Shown piece by piece: positions 52,901-63,895 of a DNA stretch of 64,000 nucleotides; position 1 is the stretch's first letter; the number at the start of each line of letters is the position of its first letter. A model generated the notes under the pieces. It had not been told where the DNA came from, ran no database searches, and saw only the letters and a program-made list of their open reading frames with translations. This DNA comes from Pseudonocardiaceae bacterium. Lineage in GTDB: Bacteria; Actinomycetota; Actinomycetes; Mycobacteriales; Pseudonocardiaceae. Where the stretch lies: assembly GCA_035606945.1 (NCBI GenBank), contig DATNDR010000086.1:9145-73144 (forward strand), given 5' to 3'. The position numbers were made by a program, and so were the translations under genes.

Positions 52901-53102
52901 ACGGGCGAAACGTTGACACCATGGTCATGCGCCTGACGGCGAGCAGCCATCCTGTCGAACTCGGTGACAAGACGGCTGCCCACAATCATCAAGATCGGCT
53001 GGATACGGGGCACGCCTTCGTCCGGTGGGCGGCGTCAGCGGGGCCGGCATTCACTGATCGGGGTCGCGACCACCGCCGACGGCCTACCGGGCTGTAACTG
53101 AT

Positions 53103-53303
53103 TCAGTGAAGGCCTAGGAAATTCCCATAGCGGGGACGTGGGTTGTAGCCGCAACCGTCGTTGTAGCAGTAGTAGCCATGGTCGTAGCGGCGGTAGTGGT
53201 AGCCGGTGGGGCGGTAGGGGCCATCGCCACCCCAGCCTTCGCAGCCACAATCAACGCCGTGTCCATACCCGCCACCCTGTGCGAAAATCTGTGCAATTCT
53301 CAT
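53103..53303 (-). CDS. small Gly/Tyr/Cys/His/Arg-rich protein (66 aa), function unknown
   Basis: ATG 53303 is preceded at 6 nt by GAAGGAG. The product is MRIAQIFAQGGGYGHGVDCGCEGWGGDGPYRPTGYHYRRYDHGYYCYNDGCGYNPRPRYGNFLGLH, with no signal peptide or TM. Confidence 0.55.
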   Translation of the reverse strand: MRIAQIFAQGGGYGHGVDCGCEGWGGDGPYRPTGYHYRRYDHGYYCYNDGCGYNPRPRYGNFLGLH

Positions 53304-53391
53304 GCCCGCTCCTTCGGGATAGGTAGCAGAGCAGGGACGCCAGTAATCCCGGACAAGCCTGTGCAGTGCGCATGCGGCTTCATGAAAGTGA

Positions 53392-53407
53392 GCGATCGAT
53401 CGATCGC
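53392..53407. promoter_or_regulatory. perfect 16-bp palindrome GCGATCGATCGATCGC (candidate operator)
   Basis: Seen directly. It lies ~90 bp upstream of the small G/Y/C-rich gene in a non-coding stretch. Confidence 0.3.
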
Positions 53408-53805
53408 ACTGTCAGGCTGGATGTGATCGAATCGTAATGTGCGCGCCGGAGACGTCATCTCACGGCATGGTGCGGGCAGTGCCCCCCGGTATCAACACCG
53501 GCAGCTCGTCGTCGCACAGTCAGCAATCCCCCCAGTTGTCCGACTGGCCTCCTTACTCAGCGTGGTCATATGCATCTCGAACGTAAGCGATACTCTCCGT
53601 GATTTCAACTATTACTTTGTGTATACATCTGCCTACAGTACGTGAGGAGTGCGACGTGGCCGTGGCCAAAGGTGCCCGACCAGACGGTACGGGTAGGTGA
53701 GGTCGTCTGGCCGGGCGGTTCCCGATCCGGACAGTGCGGTGGAGGAGGACTCGTCCGGCCGGGTAGCTGAAAGGAGAAGTCGTGGGTCGGCAGGCGCCGC
53801 GGTGA

Positions 53806-54249
53806 CTAGGCGGGTACGGGCATCAGTGCCCTCAGTGGCTCGTGATCAAGCAACGTCAGCTTGATCCAGCCGTGGCCGCAAGGTGTGATGCGGACCATGG
53901 GCACATCCATACCCGCGGCGATGCGGTGCGCTTCGGCTTCGAAGTCGTCCACCACCTGGCCGGGCAGCATTCGCACCAGCAGCGTCACCGGTGGGCCCGG
54001 ATCCACCGACTGCACCTGCGGGGCCACCATGACGGGTAGCCTCCCGGCGGTCACGGTGTGATGCGCGAGGTCCGTGTTGTCCATCGTGTCGTTCCACTGC
54101 CAGACCACCTCACTGGCCCACCGTGCCAACTCGTCAGCTTCTCGCCGACGCTGCAGCCAGCGCGGTGTCCACCGGGAACGGTGACGGCCCGACAGCTCGG
54201 CGTGCCGACCGACGGCCCTGGTACTCACACCGCTCGAAATGAGCGTCAT
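53806..54249 (-). CDS. FtsK/SpoIIIE-type conjugative-transfer protein, N-terminal-region-like fragment (no ATPase domain)
   Basis: 147-aa ORF. QVQSVDPGPPVTLLVRMLPGQVVDDFEAEAHRIAAGMDVPMVRITPCGHGWIKLTLL resembles the pre-ATPase region of actinomycete ICE/plasmid Tra (FtsK-like) proteins as I recall them. The P-loop part is absent. Confidence 0.3.
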   Translation of the reverse strand: MTLISSGVSTRAVGRHAELSGRHRSRWTPRWLQRRREADELARWASEVVWQWNDTMDNTDLAHHTVTAGRLPVMVAPQVQSVDPGPPVTLLVRMLPGQVVDDFEAEAHRIAAGMDVPMVRITPCGHGWIKLTLLDHEPLRALMPVPA

Positions 54250-54412
54250 GACAATTCCCTCCTCTATTCCGTTACCCTGGTGCGTTGTCGGGTTATGTCC
54301 ATCTAATGCAGTGGATACCCGTCAGGGATTGGTTCAAACGACTCGTCAACGATTCTTGACTGGGACGATACTTCGCGAGAACAAGCCACATCCGCGTTTC
54401 GCGTGCGGCCTG

Positions 54413-54802
54413 TCAGGGCGAGTTCTCCAAGGCTGCGGGCACGGTGTCGGCGAAACTGAACTGCTCTCGTAGGCCCGTCACGTCCAAGGCGCGATTGATC
54501 ATTCCTGAGTTGCACACCAATCGCAGGTGGTGACCTTCTCGCGCAGCGAGTTCATTAGCTTGGACGAGCACGGACAGACCGGCAGATCCCAAGAATTGCA
54601 CCCCATCGAGGTTCAGCACCACCAGGGGAGCAGCGGTCACCTGGGCGATCACGAACACGGCCAGCTCCGCGGCGGTCAGCGTATCGATCTCGCCTCCCAC
54701 GGTGACCACCCGAGCGTGGGGACCGTGCCCGGTCACCTGCAGATCCAGCACGTCGGAGCACAACGGACCTGCCCTGCCCAGGGTGCCCGGTAGTAGCGCC
54801 AT
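54413..54802 (-). CDS. STAS-domain anti-sigma-factor antagonist
   Basis: ATG 54802 is preceded by GGAAAGGAG. VTVGGEIDTLTAAEL...LNLDGVQFLGSAGLSVLV...LRLVC...RALDVTGL is the classic SpoIIAA/RsbV pattern, with the phosphorylatable Ser in GSAGL. Confidence 0.8.
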   Translation of the reverse strand: MALLPGTLGRAGPLCSDVLDLQVTGHGPHARVVTVGGEIDTLTAAELAVFVIAQVTAAPLVVLNLDGVQFLGSAGLSVLVQANELAAREGHHLRLVCNSGMINRALDVTGLREQFSFADTVPAALENSP

Positions 54803-55316
54803 CGCCGGCTCCTTTCCTGCCTCGGTGGCGCCCCAACGGCGACGCCAATCCTTCCCTGACGATCGGATCATGGTGACCCTGACCGTGACCGTGAGGTTGC
54901 TGAGAGTTACCCACCCTGTGCAAGCGCAAAACCTTCGCCTGCTTCGCAAGGCGTGGTCTGTGTTCGACGAGCGCGCGGCAAGCGCCAGCGCCTGTGCCCA
55001 TCAACGCCGTCGCATCGGCCCCATGAGCTCGGCAGCACGATGTCGACACCGAGGCGATCGACCTGCAGAAATTCGATCTTGGGCAACCGGCGGGATAGCG
55101 CATCAGTGCGACTCTCGCGGCGTTAGGAGCCAGCTCTTGTTGCGCCGCAGAGCGCTGAACGTACGGTCCAGTCCAGCCGGCGTGATCGTCGGCCTGACGT
55201 GCTCGCGTGTCATGTGAGTGCGCTTCACCTGGGGACAACAATCTCGGATTGGCTTACGATTGCCCAACGCAGCGCACTTCGCGAACCGATAACAGCAAAC
55301 ACGCTAGGAGCTGACC

Positions 55317-55457
55317 ATGACTGAATCCGAAAAGGGGCAGCACGACGAAGACTCGCAGACCGATGACGACACCGCGGAGGACGAGCGCATTAACGATCCG
55401 CTTACTAAAACCGATGTCAAGGCACCCCGTACTCCCTTCGGATCAGAGGATTCATAG
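55317..55457 (+). CDS. small acidic hydrophilic protein (46 aa), hypothetical
   Basis: ATG 55317 is preceded by AGGAG (6-nt spacer). The product is MTESEKGQHDEDSQTDDDTAEDERINDPLTKTDVKAPRTPFGSEDS. It is below the size cut-off of the supplied ORF track. Confidence 0.3.
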   Translation: MTESEKGQHDEDSQTDDDTAEDERINDPLTKTDVKAPRTPFGSEDS

Positions 55458-56195
55458 CTCAATTCACGAGGGTCGCGGCCACCGCGCTCATCGGCATTGC
55501 GAGTGCGCCGTGGCCAATGCCACGTAGTCAAGGAGGGCTGAACAGTCCTTGATCACAGTGATCATGCGTGCTTGACCGACCACTAACTTAGCGGCATCGA
55601 GCCGTGGCCTGGCCCTCACCGCGCGCGGGTTCACCGGTTCCGGCCTTCTGGGGTGCGCCGCGGGTTTGTGGGCAGTGGCGCATCCTGCTGGCGGCGATGG
55701 CGCGCATGCGCGGTTCAGCAGGATGCGCGCGTCCACAGTCGCGCTCCTCGCAGAGCAGGTAGGGAATCCCTACCTCCGGTAGGGGATTCTTCCTTTCTCA
55801 TTGGGGTGCGCGCTCCCGCGAGCTGCGCGGCGGAGGTCACCACGGAAAACACTGCCTCGCCCCTCACTACTCCACCCAACGACTCAGACGATGGCGGCGG
55901 GGTTCGTTCCTCGAAGGGCTTCAGTGCTTTGCCCAGCATTGTCTTGGCACTGCGCTACACACTGTCCTACGCGGACCCGGCTACCTACGCTGATTGGGCA
56001 GCGCTACACCGGTCGCGCGTATGGCGGCTGACTAAGCTAGGTAGTACCCCGCAAGGGTTACGTAGGATTACGGATTGCCACCCCGTGGAGGGCTAGGCAC
56101 TGTAGGTGATGGCCGGACCGGCGCTGCCCGCCGGTTCCGTGCCATACACACGCCTTCCGGGTAACTCTACATGTGACTGTTCTGGGGGAAATGTC

Positions 56196-56498
56196 ATGTT
56201 CGATGCGATCAGCGACGCCGAAATCGGCTGCTACGAGCCGGAATTGCTGCCCGCGCGCACCGTCTTGTCGATGCGTAGCGGCGGTATCCAGGGCGTTCTC
56301 GGCGATAACAACAGCGGCACGAGCGGCGGGTCCGGAAGCCACGGCGGCGCCAGCCACGCACATAATTTCAACCTGCTCTGGTGGCTAAACCAGCCCGGCA
56401 CGGCGAACCCGGACACTGCCGGTGCGGGCAGCACCGCCGCTGCCAACCACACCGCCGGAAGCGAGATCGGAAGCGGCGGCGCGGACGCGAACGGCTGA
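56196..56498 (+). CDS. 100-aa protein with acidic leader-like N-terminus and Gly/Ser/His/Asn/Ala-rich low-complexity body
   Basis: ATG 56196 is preceded by GGGGGA. The product starts MFDAISDAEIGCYEPELLPARTVLSMRSGG, then continues IQGVLGDNNSGTSGGSGSHGGASHAHNFNLLWWLNQPGTANPDTAGAGSTAAANHTAGSEIGSGGADANG. Confidence 0.45.
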   Translation: MFDAISDAEIGCYEPELLPARTVLSMRSGGIQGVLGDNNSGTSGGSGSHGGASHAHNFNLLWWLNQPGTANPDTAGAGSTAAANHTAGSEIGSGGADANG

Positions 56499-57094
56499 CC
56501 AAGTCGAGCAACCCGGGCACGGGTCTTGCCACCATGAAATGTCGGCAGTCGCTGGCGAGTTGTCATGACGTTCGCCGTGCCCGTCGCCGAAGGTGGCTGC
56601 ATCGTGCCCAACAGCCGTGGGTCCCGGGCCCAAACGTGGACGGGAATGCTGCGATCGCGGTGGAGCAGGACTACGTCGACCTGCTCTACCGCCATCTCGA
56701 CCAACGTTGCCAGTACACCGCGGCGCGCCTGGCTGAGGTGCTGCTGGCGACAGTGGACGTATCGGCTGACTTTTTGCTGCCTCCGATCAAGCCGGATGCC
56801 CGGATCGGAGGCCCCGTGTCGGCGCGCCAGCCTGAGGATCGCCTCGCGCCGCTCGCGCAGTTCGTCGAGCGAGGGTGGTGCGTGCCGAAGTTGTCAGCGC
56901 CAACTAACTCTCAGTGGTGGCTTTGGACCCGGCAGGTACTGGTGCGTGGTCGGGGAGTTACGGTCATGCCGTGGCGTTTCGGATAGCGCTAGATCGGCTT
57001 CGGGATGCTCGACGTTGCTGTATTTCACAGCTGTATGGCTGATCTGGGCGCACAACCCGACAGCGCAAGCCGCTGCCCTGCTGGTCCAGTCTGT

Positions 57095-57136
57095 CGAGGT
57101 GACGGGATTTGAACCCACGGCCTCTTCGTCCGAAGA
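57095..57136 (-). other. tRNA 3'-half-like fragment (long variable arm + T arm + acceptor 3' strand), possible att remnant
   Basis: The minus strand reads TCTTC-GGAC-GAAGA (variable-arm hairpin), GG, CC-GTGGG-TTCAAAT-CCCGT (T arm with 2 G-U pairs), CACCTCG. No matching 5' half or anticodon arm could be found. Confidence 0.35.
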
Positions 57137-57860
57137 AATGAAAGCACCGCGCTGGCCAGCGCGTTTCAGCGGGTTCGACCTGTTCAGACATCCCTCACGA
57201 TCCCGGAAGTCCGCCGTCATACGTGGTGATTGTCACGCAGTTCGTCACGCACGCCGCATACACGATGATCATAAGGTATACGGCAATTGCCGTGTGAATG
57301 GCACGCTCAGCCTGGTCCCCTTGGTGGCCTCTGCCGCACGGGGTGGTGGCAGTGCTCTCCAAACCGCGCCGCCCAGCAGGACAACCAGCACATCACCAGC
57401 ATCACGCTCCAGGTCAGGCGCGGAAGCCACCACAGGTGACAGCGCAGGTGACCGTGGCATCTTTGCCGAGCAAGGCCATCAATGACGGCGCGGGACCAGT
57501 CGATCAGTCCCCGAGCGCCCGGTCCGTCCAGATCGCCCATCATTTATCGGGTACCAGCCGACGCGACAACTCGTCAAGCACGACCGGGACCATGGCCGCA
57601 TCACCGCCCGGCTTTCGCCTTCGATGCCACGGACTGATCCACGAACTTGTCCAGGTCGCCTCGTATGAATGACCTATTCGGCACCCACAGGCTGAGCACC
57701 CCAATCACCGGGCCAGAGGAGCAGGCCGGCTTTTGGAATCCCACAGGATGACCAGTTCGGCACCCGCAAGCACGAAACGGCTCTGGTAACGTGGAACCCG
57801 CCACGCCGCACATGCCGAATCGACGGAATACTGCATTGTGTACAACCGGAAAGGCGAGCT

Positions 57861-58973
57861 CTATCGCGAGATCAGTTCAATAAAGCGATTTGCTATTGCT
57901 GTGCGTGTTATTGCGGTCTGACCACGTGCTAGGTGGAATAGAGCTTCGCCCATCAAGCGGCTCGCGGTGCTTCCTGTTATCATCGCCGTTGCACCGGATG
58001 CGGCTATACACGCTGTACCGGCTCGGCAGGTCAGCTCAAGTGCCGCAGCCCGTAATGCCTGCCGGTCGGCAAGACTTTTTTCCGATGTGAATTCGTCTGC
58101 CAGCCTATATGTTTGCTCCCGTAGTTGTGCGCCCTCGCTGGCCAAAGCCATGCCGAGGTCGTAGTACTTGGGGCCCGAGCGAGGGGCTGAGGCCACAAGG
58201 AAATCGGTTGCGGCGCGCAATGTCCCATAGATGCCGGGGTTGACATCGGCGCGATCATACTTATCCTGACGAAGCCACGCATCCCACGAAGTGCTGCCGA
58301 TTACTTGGTCGGGCGTCACTGCGACGTCGCGTAGCTCGACCGAGACGGTGCCGGTCGCGTTCATGCCCCATAATTCCTGCGGGCGAATTTCTCCGATACC
58401 GTTGTCGGTGCGGCAGGGTAGAAGCATCGATAGAACCTGGCCGTCCGGGGTTACCGCGGCCACCAAGAACACATCCGCTAGGAACCAGCCCGTCAGCCAG
58501 GGAAGGCGGCCGGACAGGCGCCATCCTAGCCGATCTGGGGTGGCGACTACAGCGGGCGATCCAGTGCGTCTCAGGTGGGAGGTTGCTTCGGCGCCGAATA
58601 CCTCGCCGTTTACCATAGCCTTGAGCCACTTATCGCGTAATTCTCGGTTGGCGCTAGCGGCGACTTCTTTAACCGGTTGGTGATGCTGATGTGAGACGAA
58701 CCAGGTGGAACCATCCGCTGCGGCCACTAGCTCGGCAACTTCCCGACGAACTTCCTCGTTGTTTAATGGACCTGCCGGTTGGTAGGTCATCAGCCCGAGG
58801 ACACCCGCGCGGCCAAGGGCTTCGAGGTGAGATCGAGGTACGCCGAACTTTGCGACGTGGTCAGCTTGCGGACGCAGCGTCTGATCAGCCAGCTCGGTCG
58901 TACGAGCGATCAGGACGTCCTCGAGCAGCCTAGGGGGCGTAGATAAAGCAGTTGTGGGCGCTGGGGACATCAC
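57861..58973 (-). CDS. acyl-CoA dehydrogenase-fold flavoprotein family member
   Basis: 370 aa. The overall three-domain ACAD pattern is an N-terminal helical part, a middle beta domain (GWRLSGRLPWLTGW...) and a C-terminal helical bundle (GATAMITGSTASRLMGEALFHL). It lies in low-GC DNA, and substrate and chemistry are unknown. Confidence 0.65.
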   Translation of the reverse strand: MMSPAPTTALSTPPRLLEDVLIARTTELADQTLRPQADHVAKFGVPRSHLEALGRAGVLGLMTYQPAGPLNNEEVRREVAELVAAADGSTWFVSHQHHQPVKEVAASANRELRDKWLKAMVNGEVFGAEATSHLRRTGSPAVVATPDRLGWRLSGRLPWLTGWFLADVFLVAAVTPDGQVLSMLLPCRTDNGIGEIRPQELWGMNATGTVSVELRDVAVTPDQVIGSTSWDAWLRQDKYDRADVNPGIYGTLRAATDFLVASAPRSGPKYYDLGMALASEGAQLREQTYRLADEFTSEKSLADRQALRAAALELTCRAGTACIAASGATAMITGSTASRLMGEALFHLARGQTAITRTAIANRFIELISR

Positions 58974-59695
58974 CGAGGAATTTGCTCGATTACACGGTTA
59001 TTTACCACGACAGCCGGGGGCGCAGAAGATGAGTCGGGTATTGCCGCAAGCTCACTGAATTTTTCTCCTAAGGGGCGAATAATGTGTTGCTCTACCTGGT
59101 AGTAACTAGTAAGTGTGGCGAGCGGTGCTCGCCGCATGTACCAGTGTCCATGTAAGTCGCAACCGATCTCGTTGCGTCGGAAGCCACCGGTGAGCCATCC
59201 TTCGGTCTCAGATTCGCAGGTACGCTCGATGCGGAAGTGATTGAAGATGGTGTTGGCAGTCGTGTGGACGCGTTCGTTCGGATCGCCCGGGCGTGGGATG
59301 GTGACGCCAAACCAACACTCCGGTTGGTCGGCATCGTTGACATACGCATCGTTGAAACCGAGCCATGGCCACACGAAGGCGATTAGTCGTGCCTGCGCGG
59401 TCGGGCAATCATCGATCGGCGTGCCGGCTGGTAGCCGGTCCGGATCAATGTAGAAACGACCCAGCCATGTCGGCAGCCATAGGTAGTAAGGATAGGAGCT
59501 ATCATCAGAAAGCAGGTAACTGTTAGCGTTGCTAGATAGTTCATTCCCTGCTATAGCGCGCAACCGAACGCCGTATTCGGCAATAGAAAGCCGAACGCTG
59601 ATTACCTCAAAGAAAGAGCGAATGTCGCGGAAATACTCCGACATATCACGGTAGGCATTTGTGACCGAGCCGAGCACGTGCGCCCTGAAGATCAT
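58970..59695 (-). CDS. hypothetical protein (241 aa), no recognisable domain
   Basis: Its stop overlaps the ACAD-like start (4-nt overlap). Trp/Tyr-rich (YPYYLWLPTWLGRFYIDPD, FVWPWLGFNDAY, CDLHGHWYM) with no TM. Codon usage matches its neighbours. Confidence 0.6.
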   Translation of the reverse strand: MIFRAHVLGSVTNAYRDMSEYFRDIRSFFEVISVRLSIAEYGVRLRAIAGNELSSNANSYLLSDDSSYPYYLWLPTWLGRFYIDPDRLPAGTPIDDCPTAQARLIAFVWPWLGFNDAYVNDADQPECWFGVTIPRPGDPNERVHTTANTIFNHFRIERTCESETEGWLTGGFRRNEIGCDLHGHWYMRRAPLATLTSYYQVEQHIIRPLGEKFSELAAIPDSSSAPPAVVVNNRVIEQIPR

Positions 59696-59729
59696 AACTT
59701 CTACCCCTCGCGACTTGCGGTTACAGCTT

Positions 59730-59750
59730 TATATGTGTCCGCAGCATATA
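59730..59750. promoter_or_regulatory. TATATG-N9-CATATA inverted repeat in divergent promoter region
   Basis: Seen in the 124-bp AT-rich spacer between the divergent 58970-59695 and 59820-61499 genes. Confidence 0.25.
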
Positions 59751-59819
59751 CTGACGCTATACAGTAAGTAAACAGCTGATGACCCAAAGGTGATGTGAAG
59801 TGATCTTCGAGGACGAGCC

Positions 59820-61499
59820 ATGGTAGACGCGGGAGGCGGCGGGATAGAGGTCGATGTGGCCGTCGTTGGCGCCGGCATCGGCGGATGTTATGTCAGTCTC
59901 CGCTTGCTGGAGGCTGTCCGTACTGGGCAGTTCCACACCACGACCCCATTGCGATCTTCCGCGCGTACCAGGCCGGTGACCGTAGCGCTGTTTGAGGTGT
60001 CCGACCGGATCGGTGGCCGGTTGCACTCGATCCAGCTACCCGGTGTTCCGGATGTATGGGCAGATTTGGGCGGTATGCGGTTTCACCGGCAGCTCCATCT
60101 AGTCTGCGACCTGATTCGCTACGTCGGATTTGAGCAGTTTATCACTTCATTCTTTTTTGACCGGCCCGAAAACCTTACTTATGTACGCGGGGTCCGCTTA
60201 CGACTGCACGAGCTGACCATCGCCGCATCGGACCGGCTTCCATACCGGCTGCGGCCGCAGGAGCGCGGACGCAACGGTGTTGGGCTTGGCTTTCTGGCTG
60301 CCGAGTCAGCACTACCGGGATTCTTTGCGTTGTATCGACGGCATCACGCCGCGCAGTCCCGATTCGATTGGTCCGAGGCAGATGCGGTCACTGCCGACTA
60401 TGCTCATGTCAGAGAAAGCGCTCGGGTAGCCGGACGCAGGCTGCTTGACCAGGAGTGGTCGGCGGTGCTGGAGCATACGCTGAGCGCGGAAGCGATGTGT
60501 TTGATTGAAGATACCGGCGGTTATGACTGCCGCCAATGGACGGGAAACGCGGCCAACTGGTTGGATTTATTATTTCATACCCCTCCGGATGTTGAGTATC
60601 TGCGGCTGTCTACGGGGTTTGAGTCGTTACCTCGTGCCGTGCATGCCCGTTTCCACGCCGGCGGCGGGCGCACCTTTCTACGTCATCGCCTACAGCGACT
60701 CGACCGGGCCAGACTTCGGGACGGCTCGGAAGGATATCGATTAACGTTTCAGCTTGCGGAAGTCGGGAGCGCCGGGAGATACACCACGGTTGAGGCTAAA
60801 GTCGTTCTGTTGGCTTTGCCGCATAACGCTTTGCGCTCGCTTGATTCGGATACCTTTATCTTCGCTTGCCCTATCGTCCGGGTCGCCTTGGACGCGGTCA
60901 AGGCTGTGCCCGCCTATAAGTTGTTCCTTGTCTATCCAGCACCCTGGTGGAAGCAGGTCGGCGTTAGCAGCGGACGGAGCACAACAGATTTACCGTTGCG
61001 TCAGTTGTGGTACTGGGGGACAGCGACCGAGAGCTACCGCACGGATCGACAGGCGATGCTGCTCGCGGCCTATCCAAGTGGATCGGCTGTGCGCTTGTGG
61101 GATAAGCACTTTCGCGATCGCGACCTTCATATGCCTGCGGCACTCGATGATTCTGCCGCTGTGCAAATAAGTGAGGTTCAACATGCTCATGCGATGGTTA
61201 TGCGACTGCATGGTGTGACGAGGGCGCCGCCACCGATTGCTGCCCGCTGGCAGGACTGGCCAAATCCCGATGGGGCTTGGCACGTTTGGCGGCCTGGATA
61301 CGATTCTCGACAGATCATTCCGCGTATCCGTCGGCCGTCGCGACGCGATGCGGTGTTTATCGTCAGTGATTGCTGGACCGGTGATCCCGGCTCGGTCAAT
61401 GGCACGCTGAGCTCGGCGGAGTCCGTACTGCAATACCATCTTGGCCTTACGTGGCCGGACTGGTTACGCCGAGATGGCACCTATCTGATTCCAACCTGA
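59820..61499 (+). CDS. FAD-dependent amine oxidase / L-amino-acid-oxidase-fold protein
   Basis: 559 aa. DVAVVGAGIGGCY (dinucleotide fold), EVSDRIGGRL, LGGMRF. The C-terminal FIVSDCW...GSVNGTLSSAESV resembles the flavin amine oxidase C-terminal FAD contact. Confidence 0.75.
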   Translation: MVDAGGGGIEVDVAVVGAGIGGCYVSLRLLEAVRTGQFHTTTPLRSSARTRPVTVALFEVSDRIGGRLHSIQLPGVPDVWADLGGMRFHRQLHLVCDLIRYVGFEQFITSFFFDRPENLTYVRGVRLRLHELTIAASDRLPYRLRPQERGRNGVGLGFLAAESALPGFFALYRRHHAAQSRFDWSEADAVTADYAHVRESARVAGRRLLDQEWSAVLEHTLSAEAMCLIEDTGGYDCRQWTGNAANWLDLLFHTPPDVEYLRLSTGFESLPRAVHARFHAGGGRTFLRHRLQRLDRARLRDGSEGYRLTFQLAEVGSAGRYTTVEAKVVLLALPHNALRSLDSDTFIFACPIVRVALDAVKAVPAYKLFLVYPAPWWKQVGVSSGRSTTDLPLRQLWYWGTATESYRTDRQAMLLAAYPSGSAVRLWDKHFRDRDLHMPAALDDSAAVQISEVQHAHAMVMRLHGVTRAPPPIAARWQDWPNPDGAWHVWRPGYDSRQIIPRIRRPSRRDAVFIVSDCWTGDPGSVNGTLSSAESVLQYHLGLTWPDWLRRDGTYLIPT

Positions 61500-61544
61500 C
61501 ATTCTACTTAGCTGCTGCCGACATGTTACGCGAAGGAGCAATCC

Positions 61545-62837
61545 GTGGCCGATCACGAAGACGTCGACTATCCAGTGCTTGATGAACGCAGCCTACCCGC
61601 GTACCTGGCTAGGATGCCTGAGGTCGCATCACGGCTCGGCGGCGCGCCCGCCGATTGGGTTGTCCAAGAGATCGGCGATGGTAATGTGAATTTTGTCTTC
61701 GCTGTGCGCGGTCCTGGGGGCGATGTCTGCGTTAAACAGGCACTACCCTACGTCCGGGCCGTCGGTGCAGAATGGCCGCTAACCCCTGAACGTACCTCTT
61801 TTGAATATCGCGCTCTGCTTGAGCATGGTCGATACGTCGCTGGCCGAGTTCCGAAGCCACTGCACTACGACCCGCACTTGCGGCTGCTGATCGTTGAATA
61901 TCTCGGTGGGCTCACCGTGATGCGCCATGGCCTCGTGGCCGGTGCCTGCTATCCGAATTTCGCCGAGCACATCGGCAGCTATTTAGCGCAGTCGTTGTTT
62001 TTTACCTCCGACCTCGCGCTGGCAGGACCCGACAAGCGGATATTGATGTCACTATTTCACACCAACACGGAGATGTGTCAGATCATGGAGGACATGGTCT
62101 TCACAGAACCTTACTGGGATCACCCACGTAACCGCTGCACCAGCCCACAGTTGGACGACGAGCGATACCAACTTCAGCGCGACAGCCGGCTTAAAATTGC
62201 CGTGGCCAGACTCAAGACCCAGTACCTGGCCAACGCCGAAGCGTTGATCCATGGTGATCTACACACCGGCTCTATCATGGTCTCTTTAGATGATACTCGA
62301 GTTATTGATCAGGAGTTCGCCTGCTACGGCCCAATGGGATTCGATGTGGGTACCTTGCTTGCACACCTCCTGATTAACTACTTTGCTCAGATTGGTCACG
62401 GTACACCCAAAGATCCGCGCAGCAAGCAACAAGAATGGCTCCTGGAGACCGTAGTCGAAGTGTGGACAAACTTCAGACTTCATTTTTGCGCATTCTGGGA
62501 GACCTCCGGCGCGGGCGACGCTTACCCTTCCTTGCTTTTCGCCGATCCCGTCGGGCAAACGGCTTTAGCGGAAGAACGAGAATCCTATCTGGATAGGTTG
62601 TTCATCGACACGCTTGGATTTTGCGGCGCGGAGATAATCCGCCGCATCTTTGGCTTCGCCCACACGGCCGATTTCGACACAATTACCGATCCTGATCGCC
62701 GCGCCTCCTGCGAACGCTCAGCAATACGAATGGCGCACCAGCTTTTAGTCGGACCCAGTCAATACCAGACCATTACAGCGGTCACCGTCGCCGCCCGAAA
62801 GTTCGGCGAGCAATTCGGTGGAGACTATAATAAGTAG
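61545..62837 (+). CDS. mtnK: S-methyl-5-thioribose kinase family protein
   Basis: GTG start, 430 aa. VQEIGDGNVNFVF, VKQALPYVRAVGAEWPLTPER, LIHGDLHTGSIMV, VIDQEFACYGPMGFDVG and GAEIIRRIFGFAH are collinear with MtnK as I recall it (B. subtilis type). Confidence 0.8.
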   Translation: MADHEDVDYPVLDERSLPAYLARMPEVASRLGGAPADWVVQEIGDGNVNFVFAVRGPGGDVCVKQALPYVRAVGAEWPLTPERTSFEYRALLEHGRYVAGRVPKPLHYDPHLRLLIVEYLGGLTVMRHGLVAGACYPNFAEHIGSYLAQSLFFTSDLALAGPDKRILMSLFHTNTEMCQIMEDMVFTEPYWDHPRNRCTSPQLDDERYQLQRDSRLKIAVARLKTQYLANAEALIHGDLHTGSIMVSLDDTRVIDQEFACYGPMGFDVGTLLAHLLINYFAQIGHGTPKDPRSKQQEWLLETVVEVWTNFRLHFCAFWETSGAGDAYPSLLFADPVGQTALAEERESYLDRLFIDTLGFCGAEIIRRIFGFAHTADFDTITDPDRRASCERSAIRMAHQLLVGPSQYQTITAVTVAARKFGEQFGGDYNK

Positions 62838-62906
62838 TCTTTTCCGCTTGCGGGCGGCGAGGGTGTTCCACGATTGACCACCGCCTCCAGTATGGAGAGA
62901 TTGCTC

Positions 62907-63728
62907 ATGCATATATTGTTGGGAACTAGCACAGCGGAAGCTGGACGCGATAATGAGGACTTTGTGATAGCGGCCCCGGGAGCGGCTGTCCTTCTTGACG
63001 GTTCCCAAACGGCGGTTGAGCGAGACCAAGGATGTTTTCACGGCGTGGTTTGGTACGTTCAGACACTTGGCACCATATTGATCACCGAAATCATTAGTGG
63101 ATCCACCTTGTTACCGAAAGCTCTTTCGACATCTATTCAACGTGTACGGTCCCTACATGAAACGACCTGTCAACTGGACTACGCTGGAAGTCCATCGTCG
63201 ACTGTCGTGGCTATGCGAGCGAGTGCCACCGACCTTGAATATCTGGTATTGGGAGACTCTACGTTAATGCTCGACTGTTTTGATAACAACCCGGAGGTCA
63301 TCAGCGACGATCGGGAAGCACGCGTTGGACGCCAGTACCGCGCCGCGATGGACAAAGTTCCAACCGCTAGCTTAGATCATAAAATAGCGCACCGTAAATA
63401 CGTCAAAGAACTTTATGCGCACCGCAACCGCCCTGGTGGTTATTGGATAGCCAGTGGAGATCCCCATGCGGCGACTGAAGCGGTCACGGGGGTAATTCCG
63501 GTCCATGGCCTTCGGGCTATAGCTTTACTCAGTGATGGTGCGTCTCGCCTTGTTGACCGGTTTCACTTAGCCACTTGGGCCGATCTCGCAAAGGTCTTAG
63601 AAGAGCACGGGCCAGGCGAACTAATCCAACGCGTACGCGCCGCTGAGGACGGCGACCCGATCGGGCAACGCTGGCCACGCACCAAAGTTCGTGATGACAT
63701 CACCGTCGCCTATCTACGTTTACGTTAG
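62907..63728 (+). CDS. PP2C-family protein phosphatase-like protein
   Basis: ATG 62907 is preceded by GGAGAG. GRDNEDFV, AVLLDGS, LGDSTLML, ALLSDGASRLV and RDDITVAYL match the PP2C/SpoIIE metal-binding Asp motifs. Confidence 0.7.
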   Translation: MHILLGTSTAEAGRDNEDFVIAAPGAAVLLDGSQTAVERDQGCFHGVVWYVQTLGTILITEIISGSTLLPKALSTSIQRVRSLHETTCQLDYAGSPSSTVVAMRASATDLEYLVLGDSTLMLDCFDNNPEVISDDREARVGRQYRAAMDKVPTASLDHKIAHRKYVKELYAHRNRPGGYWIASGDPHAATEAVTGVIPVHGLRAIALLSDGASRLVDRFHLATWADLAKVLEEHGPGELIQRVRAAEDGDPIGQRWPRTKVRDDITVAYLRLR

Positions 63729-63751
63729 TCCGATCGGGGGTCCGACGCGAC

Positions 63752-63895
63752 ATGGCTAGGCACGGCTACGCCACGTTCGCCGTGGACCGGCTCGGCACCG
63801 GCCAGAGCAGCAAGCCGCCCAGCGTCACATTGCTGAGCAGTGTCGAGGCGGCATCGATCCATCAGATCGTTGGCCACCTGCGCGCCGGCCGATAG
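63752..63895 (+). pseudogene. alpha/beta-hydrolase gene fragment
   Basis: High-GC DNA resumes here. MARHGYATFAVDRLGTGQSSKPPS... matches the region preceding the nucleophile elbow of alpha/beta hydrolases. An in-frame TAG after 47 codons follows, and both the N-terminus and the GxSxG part are missing. Confidence 0.4.

Follow-up and report, generated by a model that had tools for sequence, protein, structure and literature searches.

What is a compact, low-G+C block of five genes doing in the genome of a soil-dwelling Pseudonocardiaceae bacterium, and do its genes belong together at all? A first-pass annotation of the 64,000 nucleotides analysed here (the window) had proposed a horizontally acquired island marked by an abrupt change in composition. 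The discontinuity was borne out. G+C is 57.1% over positions 57861-63728, compared with 68.5% for positions 1-53000, 62.9% for 53001-57860 and 63.7% for the 5.7 kb past the window, and the 5.9-kb stretch of lowest G+C in the whole 64 kb, about 3.5 standard deviations under the mean, begins at 57801. GC3 ranges from 52 to 62% across the five genes but from 74 to 91% across ten others, and the three 60-mers originally counted by hand (27, 28 and 51 G+C) were exact. The change is sharp on the right, as described, but stepwise on the left, because the DNA from 53 to 57.8 kb is already intermediate.

Comparison with metagenome contigs L100-L102 by blastn gave one 5,966-bp alignment that contains all five genes at 89% nucleotide identity. 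Homology ends at both borders and the flanking DNA is unrelated, so that both junctions are fixed and the block moves as a unit. This 5,965-bp cassette (57771..63735, 57% G+C) moves between genomes as a single piece, and the five genes are a genuine enzyme cassette spread by horizontal transfer. In G+C and GC3 it stands out as foreign from each of its two hosts, that of the window and that of the second copy, and a large serine recombinase adjoins it on one of the matching contigs.

The left junction, at approximately 57771 when cassette copies are compared, does not coincide with the tRNA-like sequence at 57095 first suggested. That fragment exists (57092..57130, minus strand) and comprises the variable arm, T-arm and acceptor strand of a tRNA 3' end, but the conserved cassette begins only about 640 bp further on, so the fragment is not part of the transferable unit. 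Neither ARAGORN nor Rfam called it; one exact copy is present in the window and in L001, and it is 85% identical to unannotated att-like sites on Streptomyces plasmids. Two plus-strand copies of a 22-nt direct repeat (within 57647..57768) lie at 57668-57689 and 57747-57768, the second abutting the left junction, and a third lies beyond the window (extended coordinates 64349-64370); the extended 44-nt match of this repeat scores 41, against 21 ± 2.8 for 200 shuffles. On the right, the truncated alpha/beta-hydrolase gene proposed as the edge is a putative 47-codon remnant (63752..63895, plus strand) just outside the junction, with a weak match to Abhydrolase_1 (E 0.013, profile positions 24-47 of 245). 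The arrangement in two divergent units was confirmed, with a 4-nt overlap between the minus-strand genes, gaps of 45 nt (oxidase to kinase) and 69 nt (kinase to the phosphatase ATG), and a 124-bp spacer (59696..59819, 47.6% G+C) that holds the palindrome TATATG-N9-CATATA. Promoter and terminator scans of this spacer gave chance-level results.

The co-location of these genes elsewhere was examined in 42 species genomes (42 loci) from five bacterial phyla. The oxidase gene adjoins that of a small orphan protein in 38 of the 42 loci, in Actinomycetota, Myxococcota, Acidobacteriota and Bacteroidota, with four gene orders and unrelated flanks. A methylthioribose (MTR)-type kinase accompanies this pair in 25 of the 38 oxidase-bearing loci, whereas nine Streptomyces loci and Chitinophaga carry the oxidase and orphan only, indicating that the core works without kinase or oxygenase. 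The conserved core is the oxidase and the ~240-aa orphan, and the kinase and oxygenase are frequent accessories; the five genes thus form one block in this sub-variant, as had been claimed, but only the pair is universal. The phosphatase gene, absent from all 42 genome loci and present in the cassette copies of L100-L103, is specific to this sub-variant.

The orphan (241 aa; 58970..59695, minus strand), the partner of the oxidase, merits its name, with no match in Pfam, NCBIfam, PHROGs or PADLOC. It has 52 homologues at 43-99% identity, and a set of 1.84 billion proteins contained just 37 cluster representatives of it. Its AF2 model is confident (pLDDT 85.5, pTM 0.82) and a Foldseek search with it against PDB and BFVD returned nothing under E 0.03; the orphan represents a new family. 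In P0053 it is fused to an EcKL kinase, and the fusion gene comes directly after an oxidase gene.

The oxidase (559 aa; 59820..61499, plus strand; PF01593 Amino_oxidase, E 4e-29) is a cytoplasmic FAD enzyme of the L-amino-acid-oxidase type. Its nearest solved structures are those of L-arginine oxidase (AROD; 8t8a/8jt7, E 8e-56) and L-lysine oxidase (LysOx; 7eih, E 4e-42). The GGMR arginine, which binds the substrate alpha-carboxylate in related L-amino-acid oxidases, is retained in 40 of 41 orthologues. At the positions matching AROD Q350 / LysOx E383 and AROD E493, which serve to recognise the basic side chain in the arginine and lysine oxidases, the orthologues have aliphatic Val, Ile or Leu (39-41 of 41). 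An E493A mutant of AROD gained activity on Phe, Leu and Met (PMC11694665).

The kinase (430 aa; 61545..62837, plus strand) had been labelled MtnK-type, which names the family correctly but is too modest. It scores 463 bits against the NCBIfam equivalog for MTR kinase (TIGR01767, cutoff 275), 361 bits against the Arabidopsis enzyme (2pyw) and 257 bits against B. subtilis MtnK, and has all five MTR-kinase motifs (GDGNVN, W-loop, HGD, IDQEF and E-x-x-RR), which were read against PMC2194712. At the level of sequence it passes every test for a methylthioribose kinase. Among the loci, the APH-fold kinase that goes with the core is nearly always of this true MTR-kinase type, the EcKL fusion being the one exception. 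The phosphatase that follows (273 aa, or 284 aa from a TTG at 62874; 62907..63728, plus strand) is of PP2C (PPM) type; its PP2C_2 match, at 19.7-19.9 bits, is below the 24-bit cutoff, and most of its more than 1,500 homologues carry PF13672 and are named PP2C-domain proteins.

The gene after the orphan encodes an ACAD-fold flavoprotein (370 aa; 57861..58973, minus strand) that matches Pfam Acyl-CoA_dh_N at 25.3 bits (cutoff 22.9). Its best NCBIfam matches, SfnB and DszC, are far below cutoff and its PDB matches are acyl-CoA dehydrogenases and DszC; it is probably an oxygenase or dehydrogenase. Three unrelated families occupy this slot: ACAD-fold proteins (SfnB/DszC-like) in 14 loci, FMOs (ArsO/trimethylamine-monooxygenase-like) in four and AurF-type diiron proteins in three.

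As had been anticipated, no match to a characterised pathway or defence system was found in Pfam, NCBIfam, PADLOC, PHROGs or targeted literature searches. We consider the block likely to be a cassette for small-molecule metabolism that spreads horizontally, rather than a defence system or a chance juxtaposition. The importers that adjoin the module in some loci (an amino-acid permease, MFS, an Opp-type ABC system and a TonB-dependent receptor) count in favour of this. The best explanation overall, which we regard as about evenly balanced between right and wrong, is a mobile small-molecule processing cassette with the following mechanism. The oxidase would act on a non-basic L-amino acid, probably hydrophobic or thioether-bearing, and turn its alpha-amino group into an imino or keto acid. 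The orphan would bind or transform the substrate or product of the oxidase and physically work with the kinase, which would phosphorylate a 5-thio-substituted ribose at its anomeric hydroxyl, this ribose being either methylthioribose freed in the process or the ribosyl moiety of that same molecule. The oxygenase may oxidise a sulfur or nitrogen of the molecule and, in this sub-variant, the PP2C phosphatase may remove the phosphate or regulate the enzymes.

The oxidase and kinase may act on one molecule. A SAM-cycle thioether or ribosyl amino acid is a possible substrate of the cassette, and a concrete version, in which such a thioether (for example S-ribosylhomocysteine, SAM itself, or methylthioribose together with methionine) would be salvaged or catabolised, is put forward only tentatively. 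Several observations count against the best explanation, among them the Streptomyces and Chitinophaga loci that have the core alone. None of mtnA, mtnB, mtnC, mtnD, pfs or luxS was seen in any locus examined. Cyanobacterial homologues of the orphan (34-38% identity) occur alone or in tandem without the oxidase, and a divergent one is found in NRPS-like surroundings, where its neighbours are a thioesterase, a carrier protein and an adenylation enzyme. The single EcKL replacement implies that methylthioribose may not be the essential substrate of the kinase; AurF-type enzymes are known as N-, not S-oxygenases, so that an amine fits better than a thioether; and in myxobacteria the oxidase and kinase genes end an operon of sugar-activation genes, which points to glycosylation rather than catabolism.

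The NRPS-like surroundings of that homologue would suit a mini biosynthetic cluster, which we think unlikely, though worth weighing. Here a small N-oxygenated, transiently phosphorylated metabolite derived from an amino acid (an antimetabolite or signal) would be made: the oxidase would generate a reactive imine, the orphan would capture it as VioB, NadA and ThiG do, the N-oxygenase would tailor it, and kinase and phosphatase would give a phosphorylated, self-protected intermediate. The interchangeable slot fits, as all three families include amine N-oxygenases (isobutylamine N-hydroxylase, CreE/FzmM and AurF/PvfB), as does the kinase-phosphatase pair in a single operon; however, the PP2C gene is missing from all 42 genome loci, and the kinase has every MTR-kinase ribose-binding motif, needless for a kinase of hydroxyls or hydroxylamines. 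Moreover, the loci share no conserved exporter, resistance gene or core synthase, and the module lies outside recognisable biosynthetic clusters, often by importers.

Less probable still, and in our view doubtful, is sugar activation, in which the MtnK-type enzyme, as an anomeric kinase, would supply a nucleotidylyltransferase and a glycosyltransferase with a 5-thio-pentose-1-phosphate. The product might be attached to a surface glycan or a metabolite, much as methylthioxylose caps the lipoarabinomannan of M. tuberculosis, where the cap also has a sulfoxide form. Myxobacteria, a Thermoanaerobaculia MAG and metagenome contig L099 (with TonB-dependent receptors) encode a 465-483-aa protein ahead of the orphan. 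Every one of its top 50 Foldseek matches is a sugar-1-phosphate nucleotidylyltransferase, but the E-values are weak (3e-3 to 0.2). GT9 glycosyltransferase genes adjoin the oxidase in two unrelated lineages, yet the two are not detectably related. The GT87 and DUF6311 membrane glycosyltransferase-like genes just past the cassette in the window are outside the transferred unit and were found beside the module in no other locus examined. Most actinomycete loci have no transferase, and the scheme leaves the L-amino-acid oxidase without a role.

An anti-phage or toxin-type system, with an H2O2-producing or metabolite-depleting oxidase as effector and the kinase and phosphatase as sensor and switch, is very improbable. 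Patchy horizontal spread, foreign composition, compact size, the neighbouring serine recombinase, transposases and att-like tRNA fragment, and a GmrSD gene near one cyanobacterial orphan homologue would all suit it, but neither PADLOC nor PHROGs gave a meaningful match for any of the five proteins, the genes nearby in complete genomes serve ordinary metabolism and the envelope and do not form defence islands, and swappable oxygenases with adjoining importers are typical of metabolism. Ordinary methionine salvage, with a housekeeping host MtnK beside unrelated genes, accounts for the kinase sequence but is equally improbable, since the kinase lies in foreign DNA, was transferred with the other four genes and is linked to the oxidase-orphan pair across phyla, with no other mtn gene in the loci examined.

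The preferred reading, a mobile small-molecule cassette, can be set against known systems. Pairs of an oxidase and an imine-capturing partner include VioA/VioB, NadB/NadA and ThiO/ThiG. The cassette appears analogous in that a flavin amino-acid oxidase gene adjoins a dedicated, co-conserved partner; unlike VioB, NadA and ThiG, to which it has no detectable relation, the orphan belongs to a new family of its own. Like its best sequence matches, L-arginine oxidase of Pseudomonas sp. TPU 7192 (8T8A/8JT7) and L-lysine oxidase (7EIH/7EII), the oxidase has the GxGxxG motif for FAD, the arginine of GGMR and a C-terminal region that aligns as far as the end, but it lacks their basic side-chain recognition residues (AROD Gln350 and Glu493, LysOx Glu383). 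It always occurs with its partner protein, whereas the characterised arginine and lysine oxidases are not reported to need one.

The slot proteins score far below the equivalog cutoffs of their best named matches (SfnB 54.6 against 431, ArsO 128 against 425, AurF 201 against 620), and we class them as new subfamilies relative to SfnB/DszC, ArsO/trimethylamine monooxygenase and the AurF-type diiron N-oxygenases. The kinase has the conserved elements of MtnK/MTK of methionine salvage (TIGR01767; 2PYW, 2OLC): a GxGNxN G-loop, the tryptophan of the W-loop, the catalytic loop HGD, an IDxEF site for Mg, and an RR motif that has a Glu three residues upstream. It differs in being unlinked to other mtn genes, in travelling with an amino-acid oxidase on foreign, mobile DNA, and in being replaced in one lineage by an EcKL-family kinase fused to the orphan. 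Finally, the methylthioxylose (MTX) capping pathway (MtxS Rv0539, MtxT Rv0541c), whose biology is documented in PMC12088412 and PMC8780516, offers a possible parallel as an actinobacterial use of methylthioadenosine-derived 5-methylthio-pentose beyond methionine salvage. The GT87 neighbour lies outside the transferred unit, and this likeness may serve as a lead only.

The abrupt change of composition that the first-pass annotation had described from a few hand counts is confirmed by the computed profile. The block at 57861-63728 has a G+C content of 57.1%, compared with 68.5% for window positions 1-53000 and 62.9% for 53001-57860, and the 5.7 kb past the window end, read from an identical metagenome contig (L001), has 63.7%. 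The lowest-GC 5.9-kb stretch in the whole window starts at position 57801. Third-position G+C is shifted too (52-62% in the five genes of the block against 74-91% in ten comparison genes), and the three original 60-mer counts were all exact. The gene layout was also correctly described. On the minus strand the gene for a 241-aa protein, here called the orphan (58970-59695), is followed with a 4-nt overlap by that for a 370-aa ACAD-fold flavoprotein (57861-58973); on the plus strand the genes for a 559-aa FAD enzyme, the oxidase (59820-61499), a 430-aa kinase (61545-62837) and a 273-aa PP2C-like protein (62907-63728) are separated by gaps of 45 and 69 nt. At NCBI the two proteins in the centre are annotated as 'hypothetical protein' and 'FAD-dependent oxidoreductase'. 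The presence of ClpC and FtsH in the same window places the block in chromosomal DNA.

The spacer between the divergent units is 124 bp long, with 47.6% G+C, and contains the palindrome TATATG-N9-CATATA (59764-59784). A similar palindrome, AATATG-N5-CATATT, is found in the intergenic region of the Nocardiopsis tropica locus L031. The palindrome in the spacer may be an operator, with a pattern that is not kept in other genera; a conserved operator in the divergent promoter was rejected because the intergenic regions are alike within sub-clades only. Promoter and terminator scans gave matches at chance level.

The first-pass annotation had proposed that a relative lacking the block would define its junctions, but the contig recovered by a metagenome scan with the GT87 protein (L058) gave none; its GT87 and DUF6311 proteins are 73% and ~82% identical to those of the window region and nothing else is syntenic. 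The junctions were taken instead from four metagenome contigs (L100-L103) that carry an 83%-identical homologue of the PP2C-like protein. All five genes are present on these contigs in an arrangement identical to that of the window, and blastn gives a single alignment of 5,966 bp at 89% identity, covering window positions 57771-63735. Similarity to the L100-type copy stops within a few bases at each end, and the flanks are unrelated. On the ACAD side of the L100 copy, 530 bp from the cassette, lies a gene for a 667-aa large serine recombinase (Resolvase, Recombinase and Zn-ribbon domains), and on the PP2C side is an enoyl-CoA hydratase; the window has neither of these genes, and no recombinase. 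In the L100 host, too, the cassette has 52-60% G+C, against 64-73% for the host. The block is therefore one transferable unit with defined junctions. Of the edges originally placed at 57095 and 63751, the right is essentially correct and the left lies ~680 bp too far out, given that the alignment begins at 57771.

The tRNA-like 3' fragment that had been taken to mark the left edge does exist, as 39 nt of variable arm, T-arm and acceptor strand on the minus strand (57092-57130), but it is outside the conserved cassette and so does not define the island. ARAGORN and Rfam call no tRNA here, and neither the window nor the 5.7 kb beyond it contains the fragment a second time, which led us to discard a tRNA-bounded island. 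Unannotated att-like sites on four Streptomyces plasmids match it at 85% identity (compared region 3001-3068 of L055), and it has the appearance of an integrative element's old att site. On one plasmid, NZ_CP108804.1, the corresponding site adjoins a Doc/MazE7 toxin-antitoxin pair. The fragment is crossed by an ORF at 56565-57485 which, like those at 55653-56096 and 56106-56498, is an example from the ~2.9 kb that separate the STAS gene from the cassette (54950-57860) and in which no ORF has a Pfam match. This segment has the appearance of decayed or non-coding sequence, in a variable part of the window whose G+C is intermediate.

The 22-nt sequence GATGACCAGTTCGGCACCCGCA is directly repeated, at 57668-57689 and 57747-57768, the second copy touching the left junction. 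A third copy (64349-64370 in coordinates extended beyond the window end), within a longer match at 64328-64370 (L001 5326-5368, reverse strand), lies 614 bp past the right junction and just upstream of the GT87 gene. The three copies bracket a 6.6-kb segment made up of the cassette and ~600 bp of debris, to which belongs the truncated alpha/beta-hydrolase gene noted at the right edge, a 47-codon remnant. The extended 44-nt repeat match (57647-57689 in the window) scores 41 against 21 +/- 2.8 in shuffles, suggesting that cassette and debris were inserted into the region upstream of GT87. The repeat itself may have arisen by target duplication or may serve as a recombination site.

Homologues of the orphan number 52, at 43-99% identity, and only 37 cluster representatives were matched in a set of 1.84 billion proteins. 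A scan of 185,579 species genomes located 42 loci, in actinomycetes (Streptomyces, Embleya, Kitasatospora, Yinghuangia, Nocardiopsis, Saccharothrix, Actinosynnema and Planomonospora), two myxobacteria, two Acidobacteriota, Chitinophaga and four cyanobacteria. By tblastn with the window proteins, an oxidase orthologue stands beside the orphan in 38 of these loci, the four exceptions being cyanobacterial; the kinase is found in 25, the ACAD-fold protein in 14 and the PP2C protein in none of the 42. Co-occurrence of all five genes, set as a check in the earlier reading, thus holds for L100-L103, but the core conserved across the genome loci comprises fewer than five genes. The genes are divergent in actinomycetes, convergent in myxobacteria and Thermoanaerobaculia, and co-directional in Solibacter, Chitinophaga and one actinobacterial MAG; flanks are unrelated between lineages, and importers often adjoin the module. 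In most hosts the module matches its host in G+C content; a clearly lower value in the window, in Chitinophaga (by 12 points) and in two further hosts points to recent arrival there.

Several loci have features of their own. In Chitinophaga polysaccharea (L043, 11058-12266) the oxidase-orphan pair has 34.5% G+C against 46.5% in its flanks, and a Mutator-family transposase follows directly. In Embleya sp. NBC_00896 (NZ_CP108777.1) a copy of the four-gene module resides on a replicon of 3.1 Mb that is designated a plasmid. The cyanobacterial MAGs (L044-L047) lack the oxidase but have two or three orphan homologues of 34-38% identity, in tandem or close to each other, among SET-domain, sulfotransferase, TPR, RTX and GmrSD genes; the orphan family may thus have a second, oxidase-independent role. 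A 43%-identical homologue on a JGI 3300041966 contig (P0050) has an NRPS-like context, also without the oxidase, and is placed between a thioesterase and stand-alone genes for a carrier protein, an adenylation enzyme and an MFS protein.

The oxidase was rightly called a FAD amine oxidase (Pfam Amino_oxidase, E 4e-29, 102.8 bits against a cutoff of 19.8). The first Gly of its dinucleotide-binding GxGxxG motif is invariant in all 41 orthologues, and Arg87 of a GGMR motif is kept in 40 of them; this G(G/A)MR arginine we take, from the LAAO, VioA and TMO structures, to bind the substrate alpha-carboxylate. Its nearest relatives are L-arginine oxidase (AROD; 8T8A/8JT7) and L-lysine oxidase (LysOx; 7EIH), in which Gln350 and Glu493 of AROD and Glu383 of LysOx recognise the basic side chain (PMC11694665). 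At these positions the window oxidase has instead Val363 and Val489. The position of AROD Gln350/LysOx Glu383 is Val or Ile in 41/41 orthologues and that of AROD Glu493 is V/I/L/M/T in 40/41; the E493A mutant of AROD gained activity on Phe, Leu and Met (PMC11694665). Retention of the arginine together with these aliphatic replacements points, at the level of sequence, to an L-alpha-amino-acid oxidase or monooxygenase, and the replacements argue against an arginine or lysine oxidase. The protein would represent a new specificity class in the AROD/LysOx-like clade.

The orphan itself, previously listed as an unknown protein, has zero matches in domain searches. Neither Pfam scans of each of the 23 aligned members, at E-values up to 5, nor a profile search of PDB sequences found anything, and Foldseek searches of PDB and BFVD gave no match with E <0.03 or TM >0.25. 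The model is confident (pLDDT 85.5, pTM 0.82) and predicts a long helix at the N-terminus, an antiparallel sheet and a helix at the C-terminus; Trp, Tyr, Arg and Glu make up most of the invariant residues, among which there is no His. In one metagenomic lineage a 601-aa protein (P0053), encoded directly after an oxidase gene, fuses the orphan domain to an EcKL/APH kinase domain. This Rosetta-stone evidence suggests that the orphan works with an APH-fold kinase, and the fusion shows that the kinase type is replaceable. A second candidate fusion (P0042, 368 aa) was discarded, its extension being low-complexity read-through with no domain.

The kinase, as had been proposed, is of the MtnK type, with 463.4 bits to TIGR01767 (equivalog cutoff 275) and 361 bits to the Arabidopsis methylthioribose (MTR) kinase. 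MTR kinases are characterised by a G-loop GxGNxN, a W-loop Trp, an HGD catalytic loop, an (I)DxEF Mg motif and an RR pair with Glu or Lys three residues upstream (PMC2194712), and every one of these is present in the translation (GDGNVN, GAEWPL, IHGDLH, IDQEF and AEIIRR). The salvage genes mtnA, mtnB, mtnC/W/X, mtnD and mtnN are absent from the annotated neighbours in the window and the other loci examined.

Directly after the orphan, usually overlapping or a few bases apart, is an oxygenase gene of one of three unrelated types: the ACAD-fold type at 14 loci, an FMO-type monooxygenase at four (L010, L029, L034 and L054; best matches ArsO and trimethylamine monooxygenase) and an AurF-type diiron oxygenase at three (L026, L030 and L038). 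Judged by sequence, these appear to be new subfamilies. The ACAD call for the window protein stands on a weak Pfam N-domain match (25.3 bits against 22.9); its middle domain scores 15.4 against a cutoff of 33.3 and the C-terminal domain has no match in Pfam. An orthologue on contig L099 matches all four ACAD domains. The fold is thus supported, and either dehydrogenase or monooxygenase chemistry would be possible.

Assignment of the last protein to PP2C is partly upheld. The metal-binding motifs, sought as the PPM classes xxED, DGxx, GDS, SDG and DD/DN in the translation only, are present by eye (RDNEDF, LLDGSQ, LGDSTL, LSDGAS and RDDITV), but the Pfam PP2C_2 score of 19.7-19.9 bits is under the cutoff of 24. 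Most homologues at 50-98% identity carry PF13672 in a precomputed table, and the family, with >1,500 mostly actinomycete proteins, occurs independently of the module. Several Streptomyces and Nonomuraea records of the PP2C_2 family (e.g. P0187, P0208 and P0232) are named 'integrase', probably a propagated misannotation, although the name may hint that the family often rides integrative elements. A gene for a STAS-domain anti-sigma-factor antagonist (54413-54949, minus strand) is located 3 kb to the left of the cassette. Antagonists of this kind are common targets of PP2C phosphatases, but a functional link is unlikely here because the compositions differ and the STAS gene, unlike the PP2C gene, is not part of the transferred unit.

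Some loci have a further gene immediately upstream of the orphan, for an unannotated 465-483-aa protein, in myxobacteria (L053 6508-7905), a Thermoanaerobaculia MAG (L027 8536-9984) and L099 (8498-9949), a contig with TonB-dependent receptors. Its AF2 model (pLDDT 76) resembles sugar-1-phosphate nucleotidylyltransferases, to which all of the 50 best Foldseek matches belong, at weak E-values of 3e-3 to 0.2. Like the orphan, it constitutes an unannotated family. A paralogue is found elsewhere on the same myxobacterial contig, and there are relatives in Burkholderia. In L053 (8704-16690; a myxobacterium-like record of Comamonas sp. JC664/KCTC 72670) and L037, the oxidase and kinase end a packed operon of at least eight genes that include a HAD hydrolase, SIS isomerase, inositol-phosphatase-like protein, AAA_33 kinase, class-III aminotransferase and GT9 glycosyltransferase. 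This operon resembles a heptose or aminosugar pathway.

The oxidase-orphan pair, a ribose-1-kinase, a swappable oxygenase, adjoining importers and the lack of a defence signature argue for a small-molecule pathway over a defence or regulatory one. The cassette is best described as a mobile metabolic operon, a familiar kind of object, and the general reading of it as a mobile small-molecule metabolic cassette is probably correct. Among the hypotheses for its substrate, the one that accounts for the most features is a SAM-cycle compound, either an amino acid with a thioether or a 5-thioribosyl compound; candidates would be methionine with MTR, S-ribosylhomocysteine, or SAM, whose 2-oxo product would release methylthioadenosine. 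In its favour are the non-basic oxidase pocket, the sulfur-oxygenating relatives of two of the three oxygenase families and the tolerance of MTR kinase for bulky 5-substituents (PMC2194712). Against it are the AurF-type variant, which suggests N-oxygenation, the one EcKL replacement of the kinase, lineages in which the kinase is missing altogether, and the myxobacterial operon rich in sugar-activation genes. This counter-evidence makes the substrate-specific version doubtful while leaving the general one probable. Equally tentative is its extension to an undescribed SAM-cycle by-product pathway comprising oxidase, new-fold protein, MTR-type kinase and S- or N-oxygenase, with which bacteria that lack LuxS-type or classical salvage routes would remove or reuse a 5-thioribosyl amino acid (S-ribosylhomocysteine, for example) or SAM itself; the orphan would then dock onto APH-fold kinases, as a new enzyme or as a new fold that handles the substrate. 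A link of the cassette to the adjacent GT87 and DUF6311 genes and to the methylthioxylose pathway was rejected, as both genes are missing at every other locus and fall outside the unit that is transferred. Anti-phage defence has no PADLOC or PHROGs support (best PADLOC 2.0 E-values 0.028 and 0.052, with no system-level match).

If the metabolic reading is true, a compact and self-contained pathway is exchanged among bacteria of five phyla, it holds a protein family without annotation or detectable structural relative, and it employs a bona fide MTR kinase outside methionine salvage. With six kilobases and five soluble proteins expressible as they are, the cassette is tractable, and the natural swaps (three oxygenase families, two kinase families, a kinase-orphan fusion) point to the chemical steps that matter. 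Solving it would give a function to a new fold and could add a hitherto unseen branch to sulfur, SAM or amino-acid metabolism.

The view that the block matches no named system has held, since no characterised system has this gene combination and a literature search found no relevant paper on an oxidase with an MTR kinase. The ACAD-fold protein differs from the sulfur-oxygenating flavoenzymes SfnB and DszC, its best named matches, for which it scores far below cutoff (54.6 against 430.9 and 19.6 against 850, respectively). Compared with the MTR kinase of methionine salvage, the cassette kinase qualifies by its motifs and profile score but stands outside the pathway context, so that an actinomycete 'S-methyl-5-thioribose kinase' call alone is no indicator of methionine salvage.
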